DNA of 64,000 nt from an uncultured delta proteobacterium (GTDB lineage Bacteria > Myxococcota > Myxococcia > Myxococcales > Anaeromyxobacteraceae): assembly GCA_963814585.1 (NCBI GenBank), contig CAWFDF010000008.1, forward strand, positions 160,001 through 224,000, written 5' to 3'. The notes under the pieces are model-generated. The model was not told where the DNA came from. It ran no database searches and worked only from the letters and a program-made list of their open reading frames with translations. Below, in pieces: positions 13,825-24,957 of this stretch. Positions within the stretch are counted from its first letter, which is position 1. The number at the start of each line of letters is the position of its first letter. The position numbers and the translations under genes were made by a program.

Positions 13825-15216
13825 ATGATCACCGTCGAGAAGATCGGCGGCACCTCGATGTCGCACTTCGAGGACGTCATCAAGAACATCATGCTGCGGG
13901 ACCCGAAGCACGTCTTCGGCCGGGTCTACGTGGTCTCGGCCTACGCCGGGGTGACCAACCAGCTGCTCGAGCACAAGAAGACCGGCGAGCAGGGCGTGTA
14001 CGCCAGGTTCGCGGCCGGCGGCGACTACGCCGGCGCGCTGGACGCCCTCACCGGCAAGCTGAAGGAGATCAACCGGGGGCTGGCGGCGATCGGCCTGCCG
14101 CTGGCCGTGGCCGACGGCTTCATCTCGCAGCGCATGTCGGTGCTCAAGGAGTACCTGGACTCGATGCGCCACGTGCTGGCCTCGGGCTACCTGAAGCGCG
14201 AGAACGTGCTGCTGGCCGGGCGGGAGATGCTGGCCGCCATCGGCGAGGCCCACTCCGCCTTCAACAGCGTGGAGATCCTGAAGGCCAAGGGCATCCCGGC
14301 GCTCCTGCTCGACCTCTCCGGCTTCGACGACGACGAGCCGCTCACCATCGACGAGCGGATCCACGAGTCGTTCAAGGGCGTGGACCTGGCGCGCCAGGTG
14401 GTGGTGGTGACCGGCTACACCAAGGGCGTCGAGGGGATCATGCGGGAGTTCGACCGCGGCTACTCCGAGGTCACCTTCAGCAAGGTGGCGGTGGAGCTCA
14501 AGGCCGACGAGGCGGTCATCCACAAGGAGTTCCACCTCTCCTCGGCCGACCCGGAGATCGTGGGCGCCGGCAACACCGTGGTGGTCGGCAACACCAACTA
14601 CGACGTGGCCGACCAGCTGGCCGACGTGGGCATGGAGGCCATCCACCCCAAGGCCGCCAAGCCCATGGAGCTGGCCAGCATCTCCATCCGCCTCAAGAAC
14701 ACCTTCGAGCCGGACCACCCGGGCACGCTCATCACCAAGGACTACGTGGGCAAGCAGGCCCGCATCGAGGTCATCGCCGGCACGCCCAAGGTGACCATCG
14801 TCGAGATCCACGACCCCAGCATGGTGGGCACGGTGGGCTTCGACCTCGGCCTCATGCAGATCTTCCAGCGCCACGGCGTCTCGTACATCCTCAAGGCCAC
14901 CAACGCCAACTCGATCACCCACGTGGTCTGGGAGAAGTCGGCGACGCCGAGCTTCGTCGAGGAGCTGGAGAACACCTACGAGGTGGTCTCGGTGGTGCCG
15001 GCGGCGGTGGTCTGCGTCATCGGCTCCAACATCGCCATCCCCGGCGTGCTGGCGCGGGCGGCCCAGGTGCTGGCCGACGGGAAGATCAACGTCAACTGCG
15101 TGTCGCAGTCGCTGCGGCAGATCAACATGCAGTTCGTCATCGACCGGGCCGACTACAAGAAGGCCATCGCGGCGCTCAACAAGGCGCTCTGCCTGGAGCC
15201 GATCCGGGCGGCCTGA
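13825..15216 (+). CDS. aspartate kinase (Ask_Ect-like subtype) with C-terminal ACT domains
   Basis: TVEKIGGTSMS, VVSAYAGVTNQLLEHKK, FDRGYSEVTFS, HKEFHLSSADP, GMEAIHPKAAK. Confidence 0.9.
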   Translation: MITVEKIGGTSMSHFEDVIKNIMLRDPKHVFGRVYVVSAYAGVTNQLLEHKKTGEQGVYARFAAGGDYAGALDALTGKLKEINRGLAAIGLPLAVADGFISQRMSVLKEYLDSMRHVLASGYLKRENVLLAGREMLAAIGEAHSAFNSVEILKAKGIPALLLDLSGFDDDEPLTIDERIHESFKGVDLARQVVVVTGYTKGVEGIMREFDRGYSEVTFSKVAVELKADEAVIHKEFHLSSADPEIVGAGNTVVVGNTNYDVADQLADVGMEAIHPKAAKPMELASISIRLKNTFEPDHPGTLITKDYVGKQARIEVIAGTPKVTIVEIHDPSMVGTVGFDLGLMQIFQRHGVSYILKATNANSITHVVWEKSATPSFVEELENTYEVVSVVPAAVVCVIGSNIAIPGVLARAAQVLADGKINVNCVSQSLRQINMQFVIDRADYKKAIAALNKALCLEPIRAA

Positions 15217-15424: not shown

Positions 15425-16464
15425 ATGCGCCGATCCGCCCTCCACGCACTGACCGTCACCGCGCTGATCGGCCTGGCCGCCTGCGGTGAGGCACCTCCGG
15501 TCGAGGCGACATCGGCCGATATCGCCGCGCCCGGGCCGGGACTCCAGCAGGTCTCCTTCACCGGCGTCGGCGACCCGGCGACAGGCCGGCTCCAGATCTT
15601 CATGGGACCGCAGGCGTCCATCGGCACCATCACCGAGGACAAGGACGGCAGCGCCGCCACGGTGACCGCCGACACGGCGCAGGTCTATGGCCCAACGCGG
15701 TCACCTTCATCGCCACGGGCGGCGTCGGGCTATCCGGCCGGTTGCAGCAACACGGCCGCCCTAGGCATGGTCGCCAACGTCGAGGTCTTCTCCGGCTTCA
15801 AGGAGCAGCTCCGCAACGTCTACGCCCGGATCACCAGCGTGAGCGGCGGCCAGACCTTCTGCACCAGGGCGACGCCCGGCGGCCATCGCGCCGCCCGCTC
15901 GGCACCTACTCCGGGCTCTACTTCTACCAGCCGCTCAACAGCTGGCACGTCCCCGAGCGCCATCAAGCGGTCCGGTCCAGTGGGCCCTGAACCTGCCCGA
16001 CAATGGCGCCCTTCTGGTTCAGCGGCGACGCTCTGCGCCGAGGTCATCCCGGCGCCGCCCGACCTGCGTCGCGCCGGCGGACAACCTCGTCATCCAATCT
16101 GCCACGCACAAGCCCCAGCGTCACCTTCTCCTGGACCAACGATCCGCGGGCCGACGGAGGGACCTCGGGCGAACGGCTATCGCCGTGGCGCGCCCGAGCG
16201 GCGGCGCCTACCTGACCGCTACGCAATGCGGGAGCGCCGGGACTGCTGCCGCGCCCATCGCCTTCGATCCGGAGCTCTGCCGTCGCGACGACCTACTACA
16301 CCCACGGACCCTTCAACCGGAGAACCACAAGCTACAGGGCTCGCTACGCCAGGGGATTCTGGTACCAGTGGACACTCCAGAGCGCCTTCCTCTTGCCCGG
16401 AGCGAGGACCACCCGGACTCTTGGAAGCACGTTCATGACCCGCCACTTCGCCGTCGTCCAGTAG
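15425..16464 (+). CDS. secreted lipoprotein of unknown function, multiple frameshifts (sequencing error or pseudogene)
   Basis: Lipobox GLAAC; protein-like segments continue across frames (VEVFSGFKEQLRNVYARITS, YSGLYFYQPL, VQWALNLPDN, PFWFSG, VTFSWTNDP, FWYQWTLQS) to TAG 16462-16464. Confidence 0.6.
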
Positions 16465-16481
16465 GCCTTGGGTCAGCCCCC

Positions 16482-16659
16482 ATGAACAACTCAATCACGC
16501 TTACGACGCCTGCCCCTCCCAGCCGGCCACCCCCGCGCCGTGCCCCTACGAGTCGCCCCGCCTCACCGGCAAGCGCGTCACTCGATCGGGTGACGCTCCT
16601 CAGCAGCGCGTCTCTGCGCGCCGAGCGACCCGCGTCCTGCACATATCGGTCACCTGTAG
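16482..16659 (+). CDS. putative RiPP precursor peptide (frameshifted in this assembly)
   Basis: ATG 16482; PYESPRLTGKR (TAC at 16547) matches the YxxPxL RRE-binding leader motif; LDRVTLLSS from 16581; LCAPSDP...IGHL-TAG (16657-16659); segments lie in three frames. Confidence 0.6.
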
Positions 16660-17662
16660 TGCCGCTGAGGACCGCTCCCGCTCGCGCTCGCCGCTCGCCG
16701 CGGCCCTGCTGGCCTGCGCCGCGGATCCCGCCCCCGCCCTGCCCCTGCCCCGACGGCTACCCGGCCACCGCGACGCGCCCGGCCGGCTGCAGCCCCGGAC
16801 GTCGACTGGCTCGCCTTCGCCTTCACCAGGCCAGGGCACGCTCGACGCCGGCCGTCTTCATCGGCAAGCCGGACGGCAGCTGCGCCCAGCGCCTCACCAC
16901 CGACGCGCGCCTACTACGGCGACCCGGCCTTCTTCCCGGGCGGCAAGAAGCTGGTCTACGCCAGCACCAGGAGCGGCCTGAACCAGCTCTACGTCCGCGA
17001 CCTGGTGACCGGCGCGGAGACCCGACTCGACACCACCTACACCTTCGCGCCGCCGACCGGCCACCGCGGACACGCTGACCGCCGCCATGCCGTCGGTCTC
17101 GCCGGACGGCGCCACCATCGCCTTCGAGGGAAGCCTGGCCGCCTACCCGGGCTGGAGCGACGTCTTCACGGTTCCGGTCGTCGGGCGGCGACGTGGCGCG
17201 GGTGACGCACGATCCGGCCGCGGCCACCAGCCCCAGGTGGTCGCCTGACGGGGCGCTCCTCTACTACCTCTCCTACCAGACGGGCGCCGAGGAGCTCTTC
17301 TCGGTCCAGCCGGACGGCACCGCCGAGGTGACCCGGATCACCACCGGCTCTGCGCTCTCCAGCCGGTTCGACGTCTCCGGCGACGGCCGGCGCTGGTCTA
17401 CGCCCGCCACTCGACGACCGGCGCCGGCCCCCAGCCGACCGAGCTGGTCGCCTACGACCTCGCCACCGCGCCGGTGCGCGTCATCTCCTCGGCCAACGAG
17501 GCCGACCCGGCGGTGGACGCAGCGAACACCTCGGTGGCCGTCTCCCGCCGCAACGCCGCCAGCGGCTACGACCTCTTCCTGCTCGACTACGCCAGCGGCG
17601 CGGTGAAGCGGCAGCTCACCAGCTGCCCCGGCCAGGCCTTCGGCGCCGCCTTCGCCCGTTGA
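16659..17662 (+). CDS. TolB-like/PD40 beta-propeller lipoprotein, multiple frameshifts
   Basis: GTG overlapping the precursor TAG; lipobox ALLAC; PD40 repeats YYGDPAFFPGGKKLVYASTRSG, MPSVSPDGATIAFEG, SPRWSPDGALLYYLS, FDVSGDG. Confidence 0.7.
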
Positions 17663-18372
17663 CCGGCGCGGCCCCGCTCTTCCGGCTCCGCCAGGCCGCC
17701 CGCGGCCTGGCGCTGCGCGCCCTCCTGCCTCTCATGGTGAAGCAGCGGGCGCTCCCCGACCTGCTGGCCCGGCTCGACCTGCCGAGGGAGCCCGGCGCGC
17801 CACCGGGCGACGGCCAGCGCCGGCTGGCCGAGCGGCTCTTCCAGCCGCTCCGCTTCTGGCCCACCACCTGCCTCTACCGGGCGCTGGGGAGCTACGCCCT
17901 CCTGCGCGCCGCCGGGCAGGAGGTCCGGTTCGTCATCGGCGTCTCCAGGGCCGGCGGGGAGCTGGTGGCGCACGCCTGGCTGGAGCGCGACGGCCGGGCC
18001 ATCATCGACCGGCCCGGCCCCGGCGAGGGCTACGCGGTGGCCTACGCCTGGCCGGCCGACCCGGCTATGCTGCCGGCGCCGAGGGGGAACGCCAGCGTGC
18101 CCGGGATCAGCTGCAGCGACGACGCCGTGCTCACCGAGCTCCAGGACGGCACCGGCGTGCTGCTCCACCTCCAGACCCGCTTCTACTTCACGCTCAACCC
18201 CAGCGGCGTGCAGGCCTGGAAGCTGATCGGCGCCGGCGCCCGGGACGCCGCCGAGCTGGCGCGGCGGCTGGCCGCCGCCTTCCCGGACGCCGACCCGGTG
18301 AAGGTCCGGGCCGACGTCGACGCGCTGCTGGCCGACCTGGTGCGCGAGTCCCTGGTCGTCGTCCGGGGCTGA
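17659..18372 (+). CDS. lasso-peptide B2-type leader peptidase (Transglut_core3) fused to a C-terminal PqqD/RRE domain
   Basis: TCLYRAL...VRFVIGV...VAHAWLE (Cys/His) followed by VLTELQDGTGVLLHLQTRFYFTLNPSGVQAWKLI...DVDALLADLVRESLV. Confidence 0.85.
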   Translation: MTGAAPLFRLRQAARGLALRALLPLMVKQRALPDLLARLDLPREPGAPPGDGQRRLAERLFQPLRFWPTTCLYRALGSYALLRAAGQEVRFVIGVSRAGGELVAHAWLERDGRAIIDRPGPGEGYAVAYAWPADPAMLPAPRGNASVPGISCSDDAVLTELQDGTGVLLHLQTRFYFTLNPSGVQAWKLIGAGARDAAELARRLAAAFPDADPVKVRADVDALLADLVRESLVVVRG

Positions 18373-18379
18373 GCCGACC

Positions 18380-19327
18380 GTGCCGGCCTTCGCGCTCCAC
18401 CACCTGACGGTCAAGACCGTCTCCGCGCTGGACGTCGATCCCGGGGCGCTGCTGCTGGCCGGCTTCCCCCCGTCCGAGGACTGGCGCCGCCCCGCGCTCA
18501 CCATCGCCTTCGAGGCGGCCACCGGGCCGCTGCCGCCGCCGCGGGGTCCGGCCTTCTTCGAGCACGGCGACGTCTCCGTCCACCTCGACGGCGGCGTGGC
18601 GGTCGTCTCCGGGCCGGGCACCCGGCTGCGGGTCTCGGAGCGTGGCGAGCGGATCGACGGCCTGCTGGTCCCGGCCGCCGCCGGCGAGCCCCGCGAGGTG
18701 GCCGAGATCGACCTGATGCTGGCGCTGACGCTGGCGCTCCGCTCGCACGGCCTGGTCCACCTGCACGCCGCCGCCACGGTGTCGCCCTCCGGCCAGGTGC
18801 TGCTCATCACCGGGACGGGCGGCGCCGGCAAGAGCACGCTGGCCGCGGCGCTGGTGGCCGCCGGCCACGGCTACCTCGGCGACGACGTGGTCCTGGTCGC
18901 GCCCGGCGGCGCCCTGCTGGCCTTCCCCCGCCCCTTCCACCTCTCCCCGGCGTCGGCGCGCGCGGTGGGCGTCGAGGCCGGCCCGACGCGTCCCCGGACC
19001 GGCAAGGGCGACCTCGACGCCGGTGCCGCCTTCCCCGGCCGCTTCCGCTGGTTCGCCCCGGCGCCCGACCTGGTGCTGATGCCGCGCGTGGCCAGCCAGC
19101 CGTCCACGGCGCTGGAGCCGTCCACCCGGGCCGAGGGGCTCGGCGCGCTCCTCTCGCTCAGCGCCTTCGCCGCCTCGGCGCTCCCCGGGGCCGCCGAGCA
19201 GCGGGCCCGGCTGGCCTCGGTGATGGACGGGGCCCGCCCGGTGAGCCTGGCGCTGGGGCGCGACCTGCTCGACGACGCCGCCAGGACGGTGGCCCGGCTC
19301 GAGGCGGCGCTGGCCCGGAAGGAGTAG
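18380..19327 (+). CDS. HPr kinase-related P-loop kinase (RiPP peptide kinase type)
   Basis: HLHAAA, Walker A GTGGAGKST, YLGDDVV, LLAFPRPFHL. Confidence 0.8.
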   Translation: MPAFALHHLTVKTVSALDVDPGALLLAGFPPSEDWRRPALTIAFEAATGPLPPPRGPAFFEHGDVSVHLDGGVAVVSGPGTRLRVSERGERIDGLLVPAAAGEPREVAEIDLMLALTLALRSHGLVHLHAAATVSPSGQVLLITGTGGAGKSTLAAALVAAGHGYLGDDVVLVAPGGALLAFPRPFHLSPASARAVGVEAGPTRPRTGKGDLDAGAAFPGRFRWFAPAPDLVLMPRVASQPSTALEPSTRAEGLGALLSLSAFAASALPGAAEQRARLASVMDGARPVSLALGRDLLDDAARTVARLEAALARKE

Positions 19328-19421
19328 GCGGCCGGCTCCGGCTCGACGTCGCCCGGCCGGCGCGGCCCCGAGTCGCACGCACCCAGGGTCACACGCACCT
19401 CCCGGCCCCGGTGGCGCCCTG

Positions 19422-20513
19422 CTACCCCTGCCCCGTCGCCAGCCGGATCGCCTTGCAGAGCCCGGCGAAGCGCGGGATGCGCGCCGCCTCCGCCGGCGGG
19501 TGGAACGCCGCCTCGACGTGCTCCTCCGAGAGGCGCGGCACGAAGCCGGCCGGCAGCCGCGCCACGAAGGCCTCCTCGATGCAGCCTCGCACCGGTCCCG
19601 GCGGGCGCCCCAGCGAGACCGGGTCGTAGCCGAAGCCGTGGCGGTAGCCGAGCGGCGCCACGGCCACGTCGGCCCCGGTCTCCTCGCGGAGCTCGCGGCG
19701 AGCGGTCTCGATGGGCGTCTCCCCCGGATCCATCCGCCCGGTGACGGGCTGCCAGAAGCCGCCTCGCTCCGGCGCGCGCCTGAGCAGCAGCACGCGCCCG
19801 TCGGAGGCCACCGGCACCACCGAGACGGTGCGCAGCGGGTCCGGCCCCGGCGTGAGCCGCCGCCCCAGCGCCTCGGCGGCGTGCCGGGCCAGCTGGGCCT
19901 CCACCTCGTCGACCGGCGGGGCGGCCCGGCCACGCGCCGCGAGCTCGGCCGCCAGGCTGGTGACGCCGAGCCGCGGGTCGGCGATGCCGCACGGGACGAT
20001 CGCCTGGAAGTGGGCGAGATCCGGCGAGAGGTTGAAGGCGAAGCCGTGGCTGGTGATCCAGCGGGCCAGGTGGACGCCGACCGCGCCGATCTTCCTCGTC
20101 CCCACCCAGGCGCCGCGGTGCTCCTCGTGGCGGCCCGCCACCACGCCGTGATCGGCGCAGGTCCGGATCATCGCCTCCTCCAGCGCCGCCACGTAGCGGC
20201 GCACGTCGGGCCGATCGGCGAGGTCGAGCACCGGGTACCCGACCACCTGTCCGGGGCCGTGGTAGGTGACGTCGCCGCCGCGGTCGGTCTCGTGGAGCTC
20301 GAACCCCTGCGCCTCCAGCCAGGCCGGCGCGGCGATCAGGTTGGCCCGGTCGGCGCTGCGGCCGAAGGTGAGCAGCGGCGGGTGCTCGAGCAGGAAGAGG
20401 TGGTCGGTCTCCGGCGGGGTGGCCGCCCGCAGGGCGTCGCCGGCCAGGCGCATCAGCGCCAGCCCGTCCTGGTACTCGACGCGCCCGAGCCGGTGGACCT
20501 GCAGCGCCCTCAC
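19422..20513 (-). CDS. lipB: octanoyltransferase LipB with C-terminal NUDIX hydrolase domain
   Basis: LLEHPP, DRGGDVTYHGPGQ, RKIGAVG, ITSHGFA, IVPCGI; then WQPVTG and Nudix box GRMDPGETPIETARRELREETG. Confidence 0.92.
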   Translation of the reverse strand: MRALQVHRLGRVEYQDGLALMRLAGDALRAATPPETDHLFLLEHPPLLTFGRSADRANLIAAPAWLEAQGFELHETDRGGDVTYHGPGQVVGYPVLDLADRPDVRRYVAALEEAMIRTCADHGVVAGRHEEHRGAWVGTRKIGAVGVHLARWITSHGFAFNLSPDLAHFQAIVPCGIADPRLGVTSLAAELAARGRAAPPVDEVEAQLARHAAEALGRRLTPGPDPLRTVSVVPVASDGRVLLLRRAPERGGFWQPVTGRMDPGETPIETARRELREETGADVAVAPLGYRHGFGYDPVSLGRPPGPVRGCIEEAFVARLPAGFVPRLSEEHVEAAFHPPAEAARIPRFAGLCKAIRLATGQG

Positions 20514-21946
20514 GCCTTGGCGTCCGCCTTCTTGGGCCGCGCCGGGCGGTTGAGGGCGTGGATGGCCTCGCCCAGGGCCGCCTTGCAGGCCTCCATGAAG
20601 GCCTCGGGCAGCGTCGGATGGGCATGGACGGTGAGCGCCACGTCCTCGACGTAGGCCCCCATCTCCAGCGCCAGCGCCGCCTCGGCGATCAGGTCGGACG
20701 CCTCCGGTCCGCACATGGTGACGCCGAGCAGGAGGCCGGTCTTCCTGTCCCCCACCACCTTCACGAACCCTTCGGTGTGATCCATGGCGATGGCGCGTCC
20801 CAGCGCGCCGAAGGCGAACTTGCCGACCATGGGCTCGTGGCCGGCCGCCACCGCCTGCTCCTCGGAGAGGCCGACCGCCGCCACCTCCGGATCGCTGAAG
20901 ATGGCCGCCGGCATGGCCACCCAGTCGCGAGCGCTCTTCTTTCCGGCGATGACCTCGGCGGCGATCTCGCCCTCCCTGGAGGCCTTGTGGGCCAGCAGCG
21001 GTGGTCCGGAGAGATCGCCGACGGCGAAGACACTGGGCGCGCTGGTCCGGAACTGCGCGTCCACCTCGACGAAACCTCTCGGCCCGACCTTGACGCCGGC
21101 CGCCTCCAGCCCCAGGCCGTCGGTGACAGGCTTCATGCCGACCGCCACCAGGATCTTGTCGCAGGTGACGGACTGCTCGGCGCCGTCCACCTCGAACTTG
21201 ACGGCGAGCTCCTTCCCCTTCCTCTCGAAACCCCTGGCCTTGGCGTTGACGTGGACGGTGGCCTTGCGCAGTCGAAGCCCCTTCTGCACCAGCCGGACCG
21301 CCTCGGGGTCGATGCCGGCCAGGATGGTCGGCAGCGCCTCCAGGAAGGTCACCTCGCTGCCCAGCTTGGCGTAGACGGTGCCGAGCTCGAGGCCGATGAC
21401 GCCTCCGCCCACCACCACCAGCCGCCTCGGCACCTCGGGAAGGTCGACCGCCTCCCTGGCGCTCCAGACGTCCTTGCCGTCGAAGGCGAAGCCGGGGATC
21501 TCGATGGTGCGGGCGCCGGTGGCGAGGATGAAGGCCGGGGCCTCGAGGCGGAGCGGCTCGGCGCCGCCGGTCACCTCGACCGCGGTGGGCGAGACGAACC
21601 TGCCTGTCCCCTTCACCACCTCGACGCCGTTCCCCTTCTCGAGCTGGCCGACGCCACCGACCAGCTTCTTCACCACGCCGGTCTTGAACTCGCGCAGCCT
21701 GGCCACGTCCACGCGCGGGGAGTCGGCCAGGATGCCTCGCTCGGCGGCGCCCCGGACGTCCTCCACCAGGTTGGCCGCGGCGATGAGCGCCTTCGACGGG
21801 ATGCAGCCCCAGTTGAGGCAGACCCCGCCCAGCGACTCCTTCTCGACCAGCGCCACCCGCTTGCCGAGCTGGGCCAGCCGGATGGCGGCCACGTACCCGC
21901 CGGGGCCGGCGCCGACCACGACCGCGTCGAATGTCTTGGTTGCCAT
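20510..21946 (-). CDS. lpdA: dihydrolipoyl dehydrogenase (E3)
   Basis: GAGPGGY, GGVCLNWGCIPSK, HAHPTLPE. Confidence 0.97.
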   Translation of the reverse strand: MATKTFDAVVVGAGPGGYVAAIRLAQLGKRVALVEKESLGGVCLNWGCIPSKALIAAANLVEDVRGAAERGILADSPRVDVARLREFKTGVVKKLVGGVGQLEKGNGVEVVKGTGRFVSPTAVEVTGGAEPLRLEAPAFILATGARTIEIPGFAFDGKDVWSAREAVDLPEVPRRLVVVGGGVIGLELGTVYAKLGSEVTFLEALPTILAGIDPEAVRLVQKGLRLRKATVHVNAKARGFERKGKELAVKFEVDGAEQSVTCDKILVAVGMKPVTDGLGLEAAGVKVGPRGFVEVDAQFRTSAPSVFAVGDLSGPPLLAHKASREGEIAAEVIAGKKSARDWVAMPAAIFSDPEVAAVGLSEEQAVAAGHEPMVGKFAFGALGRAIAMDHTEGFVKVVGDRKTGLLLGVTMCGPEASDLIAEAALALEMGAYVEDVALTVHAHPTLPEAFMEACKAALGEAIHALNRPARPKKADAKA

Positions 21947-23633: not shown

Positions 23634-24957
23634 TCAGACCAGCCGCATGAAGAGCAGCCCCGGCTCCTCGAGGTACTTGATCACCTCGTAGCAGAAGGCC
23701 GCCGCCTCGTGGCCGTCCACCACCCGGTGATCGCTGGTGACCGAGACGTGCATCACGTCGCGGATGACGATCTGGCCGTCCCGCACCACCGGGGTCGGGC
23801 GCATCCGGTGGATGCCGAGGATGCCCACCTCGGGGTGGTTGAGCACCGGCGTGGCGAACATCCCGCCCAGGGCGCCGAGGCTGGTGATGGTGAAGGTGGA
23901 GTGGCCGTGGTCCTCGGCGCGGGCCCGGCCGGCCCTGGCGTCGGCCGAGAGCCGATCGAATCTCGCGGGCCAGGTCGAGCAGCGAGCGCGCGTCCGCGCC
24001 CCGGACCACCGGCACCAGCAGCCCCTGCTCGGTGGCCGCGGCGATGCCGATGTCCCAGTGCCTCTTGATGACGATCTCGCCGGCCTCCTCGTCGAGCTCG
24101 GCGTTGAGCTTCGGGTGGGCCTGGAGCGCCGCCACCACCGCCTTGACGACGAAGGGCAGGAAGGTGAGCTTGACGCCCTCGGCCCCGGCGCCGGCCGTCA
24201 TCCGCTCCTTCAGGCGGACCAGCTCGGTCACGTCGCACTGCTCGACGAAGGTGAAATGGGCGGCGGTCCGCTTGGAGAGCGCCATCTTCTCGGCGATCTT
24301 CCTGCGGACGCCGCGCAGCGGGATCCGCTCGTCGGTGCCGCGCGAGACCCGCGGCACGGCGCGGCGCTCCGGCTCCCGGCCGCCGCCCTCCTGGTCACCA
24401 CCACCCTGGAAGGCCTGCAGGTCCTGCTTGGTGACCCGACCGCCCTCGCCTGTCCCCGCCACCCGCTGCAGGTCGAGCTCCAGCTCCCTGGCCAGCGCCC
24501 GGACCGCCGGGGTGGCGAGCGCCCGCCTGCCCGCAGGGCGGACCGCCTCGGCCCGGGGAGCGGCCGGACGGGCGGGCGCGGAGGCGGGGGCGGGCCCGGT
24601 CGAAGCCTGGGCCGCGGCCGCCGCCGTATTCGCGGGCGCGGGCGCGGGCGCGGGCGCCGCCGGGGTCGAGGGCGAGGCCGGGGCCGCCTTCGCCTTCGCT
24701 GGCGGAGCGGCGGCCGAGTCCGACGGCTCGAGCTCGATCAACGCCGAGTGGACCCTGGCGACGTCCCCCTCCTTCCAGCAGCGGCGCAGCACCCGCCCGC
24801 GCCTCGGCGACGGGATGGTGACGGTGGCCTTGTCGGTCATCACCTCGACCAGCGGCTGGTCCTCGGCCACCTCCTCACCCTCGGTGACGAACCACCTCAC
24901 GATCTCGGCCTCGACGACCCCCTCGCCGATGTCGGGCAGCTCCAGCGTGTAGGACAT
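23634..24957 (-). CDS. dihydrolipoamide acyltransferase (E2), +1 frameshift near 23959
   Basis: Lipoyl domain EVMTDKAT, E3-binding ATPAVR, catalytic STFTITSLG and DHRVVDG; span 1324 nt (3n+1), with ATTC where ATC would restore the frame. Confidence 0.9.

Follow-up and report, generated by a model that had tools for sequence, protein, structure and literature searches.

An operon that holds the leader-binding and leader-cutting parts of a lasso-peptide pathway together with a kinase, and lacks the enzyme that closes the lasso ring, raises the question of what its peptide is and what it is for. Such an operon lies at positions 15425..19327 of the window, by which we mean the whole 64,000 nt analysed from contig CAWFDF010000008.1 (assembly GCA_963814585.1; 160,001–224,000, forward strand). 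The genome that contains it is 4.3 Mb in size and 92% complete, carries the locus on the contig that we number C8 and has its closest named relatives in the Anaeromyxobacteraceae. Given the lasso-type parts, the kinase and the lack of a ring-closing enzyme, the product is probably a short linear phosphorylated peptide. The explanation that in our view best accounts for the whole, and which we regard as reasonably likely, is a pathway, present in Anaeromyxobacteraceae and in some further Myxococcota, for a peptide made on the ribosome and modified after translation (RiPP) which resembles the linear polyphosphorylated peptides (LPPs) of Bacillota and which may have a lipoprotein partner. The lipoprotein is the novel part: an N-terminal domain without a Pfam match (N-domain) is joined to variable extracellular cargo and is usually paired with precursor genes. 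The operon is composed as follows.

15425..16464, + strand: lipoprotein of a family without a Pfam match, with lipobox Cys20; frameshifted; tblastn and profile matches
16482..16659 (178 nt), + strand: precursor peptide gene with a lasso-type leader; frameshifted; sequence and weak profile match
16659..17662, + strand: TolB-like PD40 beta-propeller lipoprotein; frameshifted; PF07676 and TIGR02800 matches
17659..18372, + strand: lasso B2-type cysteine leader peptidase fused to a RiPP recognition element (RRE); intact; PF13471, PF05402 and NF033537 matches
18380..19327, + strand: HprK-like peptide kinase; intact; TIGR04352 match with E 3e-13, below cut-off
19328..19421: 94-nt gap between the kinase gene and lipB, which in the related loci L012 and L016 holds a 1.1-kb NTP_transf_5 gene and in L014 an AbiE toxin–antitoxin pair

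The first-pass annotation described five co-directional genes between ask and lipB, and this arrangement is borne out: ask (NF006614, above cut-off) ends at 15216 and lipB, on the minus strand, ends at 19422. The junctions that it gave, a TAG/GTG overlap at 16659, a TTGA overlap at 17659 and a 7-nt gap at 18373–18379, are also correct, and profile searches gave no match to a cyclase, transporter or radical S-adenosylmethionine (SAM) enzyme within the operon. All five gene identities stand, except that the first three genes are frameshifted and are not intact open reading frames (ORFs). Because these genes are broken in the window, intact relatives were used for their study. No promoter or terminator consensus was found, and no RNA data set was listed as containing the locus.

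The precursor and its predicted product

The leader of the precursors reads Tyr-x-x-Pro-Arg-Leu/Ile and is followed by a Thr fifteen residues past the Tyr. The Tyr, the Pro and this Thr(-2) are invariant in the 28 precursors aligned, which were themselves found by means of the same pattern. In the window the Tyr codon is at 16547 and the Thr(-2) codon at 16593; the predicted core begins at 16599 and has Ser at position 2. The precursor profile match here (16514–16576) is weak, at 19 bits. From 54 precursor matches, 52 of which could be parsed, we obtained 47 distinct cores; one reads through to 105 residues, probably as a result of a frameshift. The cores have a median length of 16 residues, consist of 31% Gly and begin with Phe in 33 cases. 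Ser or Thr is found at core position 2 (+19 from the leader Tyr) in 39 of the 47 and within positions 1–3 in 46, and no core has a C-terminal Ser.

LPPs (lppA-K-B-S-D-N, Paenibacillus alginolyticus, 2026) are stated to be restricted to Bacillota and are made by an RRE, a kinase like HprK, a nucleoside triphosphate (NTP) transferase and a pump resembling MsbA; in their consensus, counted from the leader Tyr, position +16 is Thr and position +19 is the Ser that becomes phosphorylated, and LppK polyphosphorylates this Ser3 and does not accept Thr (PMC13381572). The phosphorylated lasso peptide of Bradymonas sediminis (Bsf) has a leader with Tyr(-17) as well as Pro(-14) and Leu(-12) that undergoes B2 cleavage, and BsfK phosphorylates Ser3 of the precursor in this Tyr(-17) register and accepts Thr (PMC10368454). 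We read the product of the present system as a linear phospho(glyco)peptide because its leader/core register matches those of LPP and Bsf and because the window core has Ser at position 2. By analogy with these systems the best reading is an LPP-like linear peptide, likely to be phosphorylated and perhaps glycosylated near its N-terminus, whose leader would be cut by the fused B2-RRE instead of by a signal peptidase.

The likeness to LPP extends to the absence of a cyclase, the Tyr-x-x-Pro leader in equal register, the Ser/Thr at the position of LPP Ser3, the HprK-like kinase in the operon, the NTP transferase and MsbA-like pump (here in trans and frameshifted) and the links to polysaccharide loci. 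The differences are that LPPs use the signal peptidase SpI and a discrete RRE whereas here a B2 cysteine peptidase is fused to the RRE, that the hosts are Myxococcota with short Gly/Pro cores in which Thr often replaces Ser, and that TolB-like and N-domain lipoproteins and an optional radical SAM enzyme are present (PMC13381572). Bsf shares the deltaproteobacterial host, the set of B2, RRE, kinase, nucleotidyltransferase (NTase) and ATP-binding cassette (ABC) proteins, the N-terminal Ser3 phosphorylation site, the Tyr(-17) register and the kinase His, P-loop and Asp-Asp residues; it differs in having a cyclase, discrete B1 and B2 proteins and Ile(-2), whereas the present system lacks a cyclase, has B2 fused to the RRE and Thr at -2, and carries its Ser/Thr chiefly at core position 2 (PMC10368454). 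Paeninodin and pseudomycoidin likewise have an HprK-like kinase and a PsmN-type NTP transferase, but their clusters contain a cyclase and their C-terminal Ser is phosphorylated (PMC6993621). The paeninodin-type comparison made in the first-pass annotation pointed to the wrong site: none of the 47 cores has Ser as its last residue, and the Ser/Thr that is conserved lies at the N-terminal end, where LPP and Bsf have theirs. Its suggestion of a new modification system also has to be withdrawn as far as the class is concerned, because linear phosphopeptides with an RRE, a kinase like HprK, an NTP transferase and a pump like MsbA had already been described in Bacillota (PMC13381572).

With lasso peptides in general the system has in common the B2 peptidase, the RRE and the Tyr-x-x-Pro-x-Leu/Thr(-2) leader, but not the cluster cyclase or a conserved acid at core positions 7–9. 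The HPr-rel-A cassette (TIGR04352, TIGR04353) resembles it in combining an HprK-related kinase with a PqqD-family protein, but the scores here are far under cut-off (49 versus 200 and 14.6 versus 35). To our knowledge the definition of that cassette includes neither a B2 peptidase nor a precursor.

The lack of a cyclase was followed through the relatives. Related loci were taken from genome contigs (42) and metagenomes (33) and from relatives' genomes, with six duplicate regions removed, and those with a B2-RRE profile score of at least 200 were counted as the clade (43 loci; in 28 of them the sequence to one side is shorter than 7 kb). None of the 43 has a cyclase match, and the same profile, run as a control on 33 distant B2 loci, detected genes resembling a cyclase in 18. 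Among 92 genomes of the family, 25 carry the B2-RRE or its RRE; the lasso cyclase family NF033535 has no match over cut-off in any of these, weaker matches in 18 and no match in seven. Beside the homologous loci no cyclase was thus found, and owing to the 18 weaker matches the genome-wide test for one in trans is only partly decisive. With the absence of a cyclase and the gene order both conserved, the proposal of the first-pass annotation that the operon makes a leader-cleaved, phosphorylated, non-lasso peptide remains the best reading.

A rival explanation is that these are true lasso peptides closed by an asparagine-synthetase-like cyclase in trans, with an N-terminal phospho-Ser inside the ring as in Bsf. 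Nearly half of the cores (23 of 47) have an Asp or Glu at positions 7–9 that a cyclase could use; asparagine-synthetase-like genes are present in the 18 genomes with weaker matches, and one, fragmented, lies about 21 kb from the NTase of this genome. Nor is the cut-off a sharp one: in genome G021 a lasso-type locus has a cyclase-like gene that scores only 297 of 525. Against this, the other 24 cores have no such acid, and the seven genomes without any NF033535 match include G029 and G108 (98% complete; 190 and 290 contigs), whose six and seven precursors mostly do bear Asp. The three cyclase candidates of this genome sit in polysaccharide or acyl-carrier contexts. Taken with the 43 cyclase-free loci, this makes the lasso explanation very unlikely in our view. 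We note that the lasso-type locus in G021 (L078, G021:C64) is a separate cluster of kinase, cyclase, RRE and B2 genes and that G021 possesses the cyclase-less system as well, a coexistence comparable with that of LPP and paeninodin clusters. Daptides were considered as a precedent for cyclase-less use of B2 and were rejected, since their peptidase belongs to the site-2 proteases (PMC10036551).

Enzymes and the conserved kit

Fifteen loci of the clade extend for 7 kb or more to both sides and share a common kit: a TolB-like gene in all 15, the kinase and N-domain genes in 14 each, a precursor in 13, NTP_transf_5 in 12, a radical SAM enzyme in seven, an MsbA-like ABC transporter in six and a cyclase in none. 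Synteny is conserved without a cyclase. At the same chromosomal site, L012 and L016 encode a 380-residue NTP_transf_5 protein between the kinase gene and lipB. A search of the 25 B2-RRE genomes gave the NTase in 23, and across the 92 family genomes the TolB-like protein (E<=1e-27) occurs in 24 of those 25 and in no other. The module is patchy inside genera (7 of 12, 8 of 37 and 9 of 14 genomes). In two genomes of other families, G135 and G180, cyclase-less cassettes are located away from the N-domain sites.

The first-pass annotation had treated the operon as a bounded unit. As regards gene order this is confirmed, but as a description of the whole system it overlooked an NTase, a radical SAM enzyme and an exporter which are encoded in trans:

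C9:193969–195112: clade-type NTase; frameshifted; in a polysaccharide locus
C9:186992–188717: MsbA-like ABC transporter; frameshifted; in a polysaccharide locus
C4:342978–347386: cassette of TolB-like, radical SAM, precursor and lipoprotein genes; intact

In the C4 cassette the radical SAM and TolB-like pair points away from a 63-residue precursor and a 681-residue N-domain lipoprotein. The NTase, the ABC transporter or the entire kit is found in polysaccharide loci in G000, G027, G085, G093, G001 and G223, and in several genomes the NTase follows a WecA-like gene or lies inside exopolysaccharide (EPS) loci.

The B2-RRE fusion matches PF13471 with 58.5 bits, PF05402 with 52 bits and NF033537 with 54.6 (cut-off 33), and Cys71 and His105 of its B2 part are invariant in 13 sequences. 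Its RRE is the sole PF05402 match of this genome; in some relatives a discrete RRE stands beside the fused one or takes its place. A leader peptidase of the SpI kind was sought with TIGR02228 in this 92% complete genome only, without a match (the control matched in 8 of 14). The kinase matches its families below their curated cut-offs (PF07475, 24.6 versus 33.3; TIGR04352, 49.4 versus 200), and its motifs, His129, P-loop Lys151-Ser152 and Asp168-Asp169, are spaced like the BsfK residues reported in PMC10368454. In a quick kinase tree a branch with a support of 98 in the Shimodaira–Hasegawa approximate likelihood-ratio test (SH-aLRT) unites 43 kinases from loci without a cyclase match, two of them from Gemmatimonadota, and all nine cyclase-linked kinases fall outside it. 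In each of the five radical SAM enzymes checked, the three-Cys motif is joined by five conserved C-terminal cysteines, and among the matches listed the radical SAM enzymes are over no NCBIfam cut-off. Eight precursors and two NTases gave no NCBIfam match.

Several related loci depart from this arrangement. In a rearranged form (L012:7965–12349, L014, L091, L093 and L094) the B2-RRE gene precedes the lipoprotein gene and a second, discrete RRE follows the TolB-like gene; several cores from these loci have Ser first instead of second. An AbiEi/AbiEii toxin–antitoxin pair occupies the NTase site at L014:12391–14053, and the NTase of that genome is on another contig. At L077:3–4072 an RRE gene is followed by a 1,238-residue ORF uniting B2-type, AMP-binding and ketoreductase domains, which may be a fusion or an artefact of ORF calling. 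The polysaccharide locus L160 (G000:C9:184000–204000) contains several broken genes and many small toxin–antitoxin-like ORFs around the NTase and ABC genes.

N-domain lipoproteins as candidate partners

The lipoproteins encoded upstream range from about 330 to more than 1,100 residues and have a lipobox and the N-domain of about 180 residues in common. In the window the N-domain is followed by a C-terminal FN3/Ig-like domain; elsewhere the cargo comprises RCC1, FG-GAP, Ig-like, CBM, phosphoesterase, nuclease and deacetylase domains, with Pfam matches in 30 of 49 proteins scanned. The bsf cluster of Bradymonas is bordered by a gene for an FG-GAP repeat protein (PMC10368454), a cargo type common on N-domain lipoproteins. 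The N-domain has no credible Pfam match and no PDB sequence match, and its family numbers 519 cluster representatives at E<=0.001. It is predicted to be a beta-sandwich with a predicted local distance difference test score (pLDDT) of 82, and a homologue of the L014 type was modelled with a pLDDT of 80. The best fold match is VP37, an envelope protein of white spot syndrome virus (Z 9.3, root-mean-square deviation 2.8, 116 aligned), a likeness that says little about function; adaptin-ear and MATH peptide-binding sandwiches follow with Z of about 6. No pilin is among the fold matches listed, and Foldseek returned nothing at E<=0.001. A search of the ESM Atlas gave one match at 0.81 and no family.

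The pairing with precursors is closer than the first-pass annotation had supposed when it linked lipoproteins and peptide. Among the 92 family genomes the N-domain is found in exactly the 25 with the B2-RRE or its RRE, and precursors in 24 of these. Genome-wide, an N-domain gene is no more than 4 kb away from 39 of 44 precursor genes (43 profile matches and the weak match of the window) and no more than 500 nt away from 26; conversely, 45 of 54 N-domain genes have a precursor within 4 kb. Copy numbers of precursors and N-domains also track each other (six and seven in G029, seven and 11 in G108). The additional precursors form repeated precursor–lipoprotein pairs without enzymes or TolB, often distant from the enzymes, and near-identical cores are repeated next to different lipoproteins inside one genome. 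Outside the family the N-domain occurs in six of 261 sampled genomes of the phylum, and in G223 and G232, which belong to another family and were not used in profile building, a precursor adjoins the N-domain gene.

These data are best accommodated by the following scheme. Its chemistry, which is drawn from the published analogues, we consider likely: RRE-guided phosphorylation, decoration by the NTase, B2 cleavage, ABC export and, in part of the clade, the action of a radical SAM enzyme. On the model of LppK, BsfK and PsmN, the RRE would bind the leader, the kinase would (poly)phosphorylate the Ser/Thr at core position 2 and the NTase would attach a sugar or nucleotide to the phosphate. The B2 peptidase would then cleave after Thr-Xaa, a Gly/Pro-rich linear peptide of about 13–30 residues would leave through the MsbA-like exporter and the radical SAM enzyme, where present, might modify it further. 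Outside the cytoplasm each peptide may pair with the N-domain of the neighbouring lipoprotein as an envelope adaptor or anchor, with the TolB-like propeller (usually in one to three copies) handling it in the periplasm. This last part, a cell-bound peptide with the N-domain as partner and the propeller as periplasmic handler, is more speculative and is put forward tentatively; we favour it over its rivals because near-identical cores recur beside different cargo proteins. A more specific version, in which the phospho(glyco)peptide binds or completes the N-domain of the adjacent lipoprotein and so ties interchangeable extracellular cargo to the envelope or a polysaccharide for surface display, is doubtful. 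By eye, the start of the core (Phe, Ser/Thr, Gly) resembles the first beta-hairpin of the N-domain, which suggests strand addition or exchange between the two, the hairpin being on a low-confidence loop of the model.

With the chemistry unchanged, the peptide could instead diffuse as a signal or weapon, with the lipoproteins as its receptors, immunity proteins or co-regulated cargo rather than structural partners. The differences in cores between lineages and the patchiness of the module within genera are as in conflict systems, and an exporter is linked in six of the 15 long loci. No recurring regulator or sensor stands beside the inspected loci, however, and near-identical cores repeated beside different lipoproteins look more like a common tag than like cognate immunity pairs; the cargo domains listed above also count against this alternative, which we think unlikely. 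Less likely again is a peptide whose main role is to prime or carry surface polysaccharide as a phospho-glycan acceptor, with the lipoprotein genes as neighbours through co-regulation. This reading would fit the NTase genes behind WecA-like genes or in EPS loci, the one or two hexoses that PsmN puts onto phosphate (PMC6993621) and the LPP clusters in capsule loci (PMC13381572). It leaves unexplained the repeated precursor–lipoprotein pairs distant from enzyme and EPS genes (L142, L146, L150–L152 and L154), and it is compatible with a cell-bound N-domain partner rather than exclusive of it.

Some observations weigh against the pathway and the partnership proposed here. Across the 13 sequences, B2 varies in its third catalytic residue; the kinase tree comes from a quick search, has long branches and includes many loci on short contigs; and the glycosylation step rests on PsmN, as LppN had no activity in the heterologous test reported (PMC13381572). 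For nine of the 54 N-domain genes the nearest 4 kb contain no precursor, and five of the 44 precursors have no N-domain; several of these are on short contigs, but G027 contains both, apart. Of the six N-domain genomes outside the family, four have no adjacent precursor, and two of the five searched have no B2-RRE match. Co-occurrence is also overstated, since these very loci served to train the profiles and the genomes are related.

The LPP report describes the roles of LPPs and paeninodins as unknown (PMC13381572). The lipoprotein pairing is a lead to what linear phosphopeptides do: it points to a candidate partner in the form of a lipoprotein domain that follows the precursor genes in occurrence, location and copy number, and so makes the question of function testable. 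With this system the biosynthesis of linear phosphopeptides also reaches a Gram-negative phylum, where the protease is another one, and gains a radical SAM enzyme that is uncharacterised and a family of protein domains that Pfam does not contain. A literature search, mainly of freely readable papers without their supplements, found no paper on this Myxococcota system or on a lipoprotein partner; the supplement of the LPP paper could list B2-type clusters.

Frame breaks and neighbouring features

The lipoprotein, precursor and TolB-like genes switch frame repeatedly, and the B2-RRE and kinase genes are clean ORFs. The stretch looks like unpolished long-read consensus, and the breaks are most likely read errors. 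Comparisons with three relatives have 21 indel sites in common, 18 of which are extra bases in the window, whereas bacterial gene decay is deletion-biased. The N-terminal part of the lipoprotein is 38–51% identical to intact relatives (tblastn), with profile matches spread over three frames, the pieces of the TolB-like gene are 53–59% identical to the intact L013 and L015 proteins, and intact precursor ORFs of 56–64 residues are found at the corresponding position in L012, L013, L014 and L016. That the three genes are instead real pseudogenes of the strain, with the intact B2-RRE and kinase serving the C4 cassette, we judge rather unlikely. This would account for the confinement of the frameshifts to these genes, about 50-fold or more over background (three frame changes among the 31 genes, 29 kb in all, that served as control, with 79 of 206 candidate queries used), and for the loss of the NTase from a locus whose genome has a second, intact cassette; the near-identical short-read contigs listed start at 17482 onward and none crosses a frameshift site. 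In addition to the excess of insertions, the pieces retain 50–59% identity to their closest relatives and the short-read contigs of related strains have gaps across the stretch, both of which argue for read errors. Among the Logan contigs, none listed spans the kinase–lipB gap with 31 letters on both sides.

The flanking aspartate kinase gene (13825–15216, + strand) is of the PRK09181 type and also flanks the cassette in L012, L013, L014, L016, L091 and L093. On the other side, 19422–20714 (− strand) encodes a LipB octanoyltransferase with a C-terminal NUDIX fusion, the best match of which, below cut-off, is dihydroneopterin triphosphate diphosphatase; the LipB ORFs of L012, L014 and L016 are comparable in length. 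Farther along, the dihydrolipoamide acyltransferase gene at 23634–24950 (− strand) contains one frame change and is split at the same place in L016.

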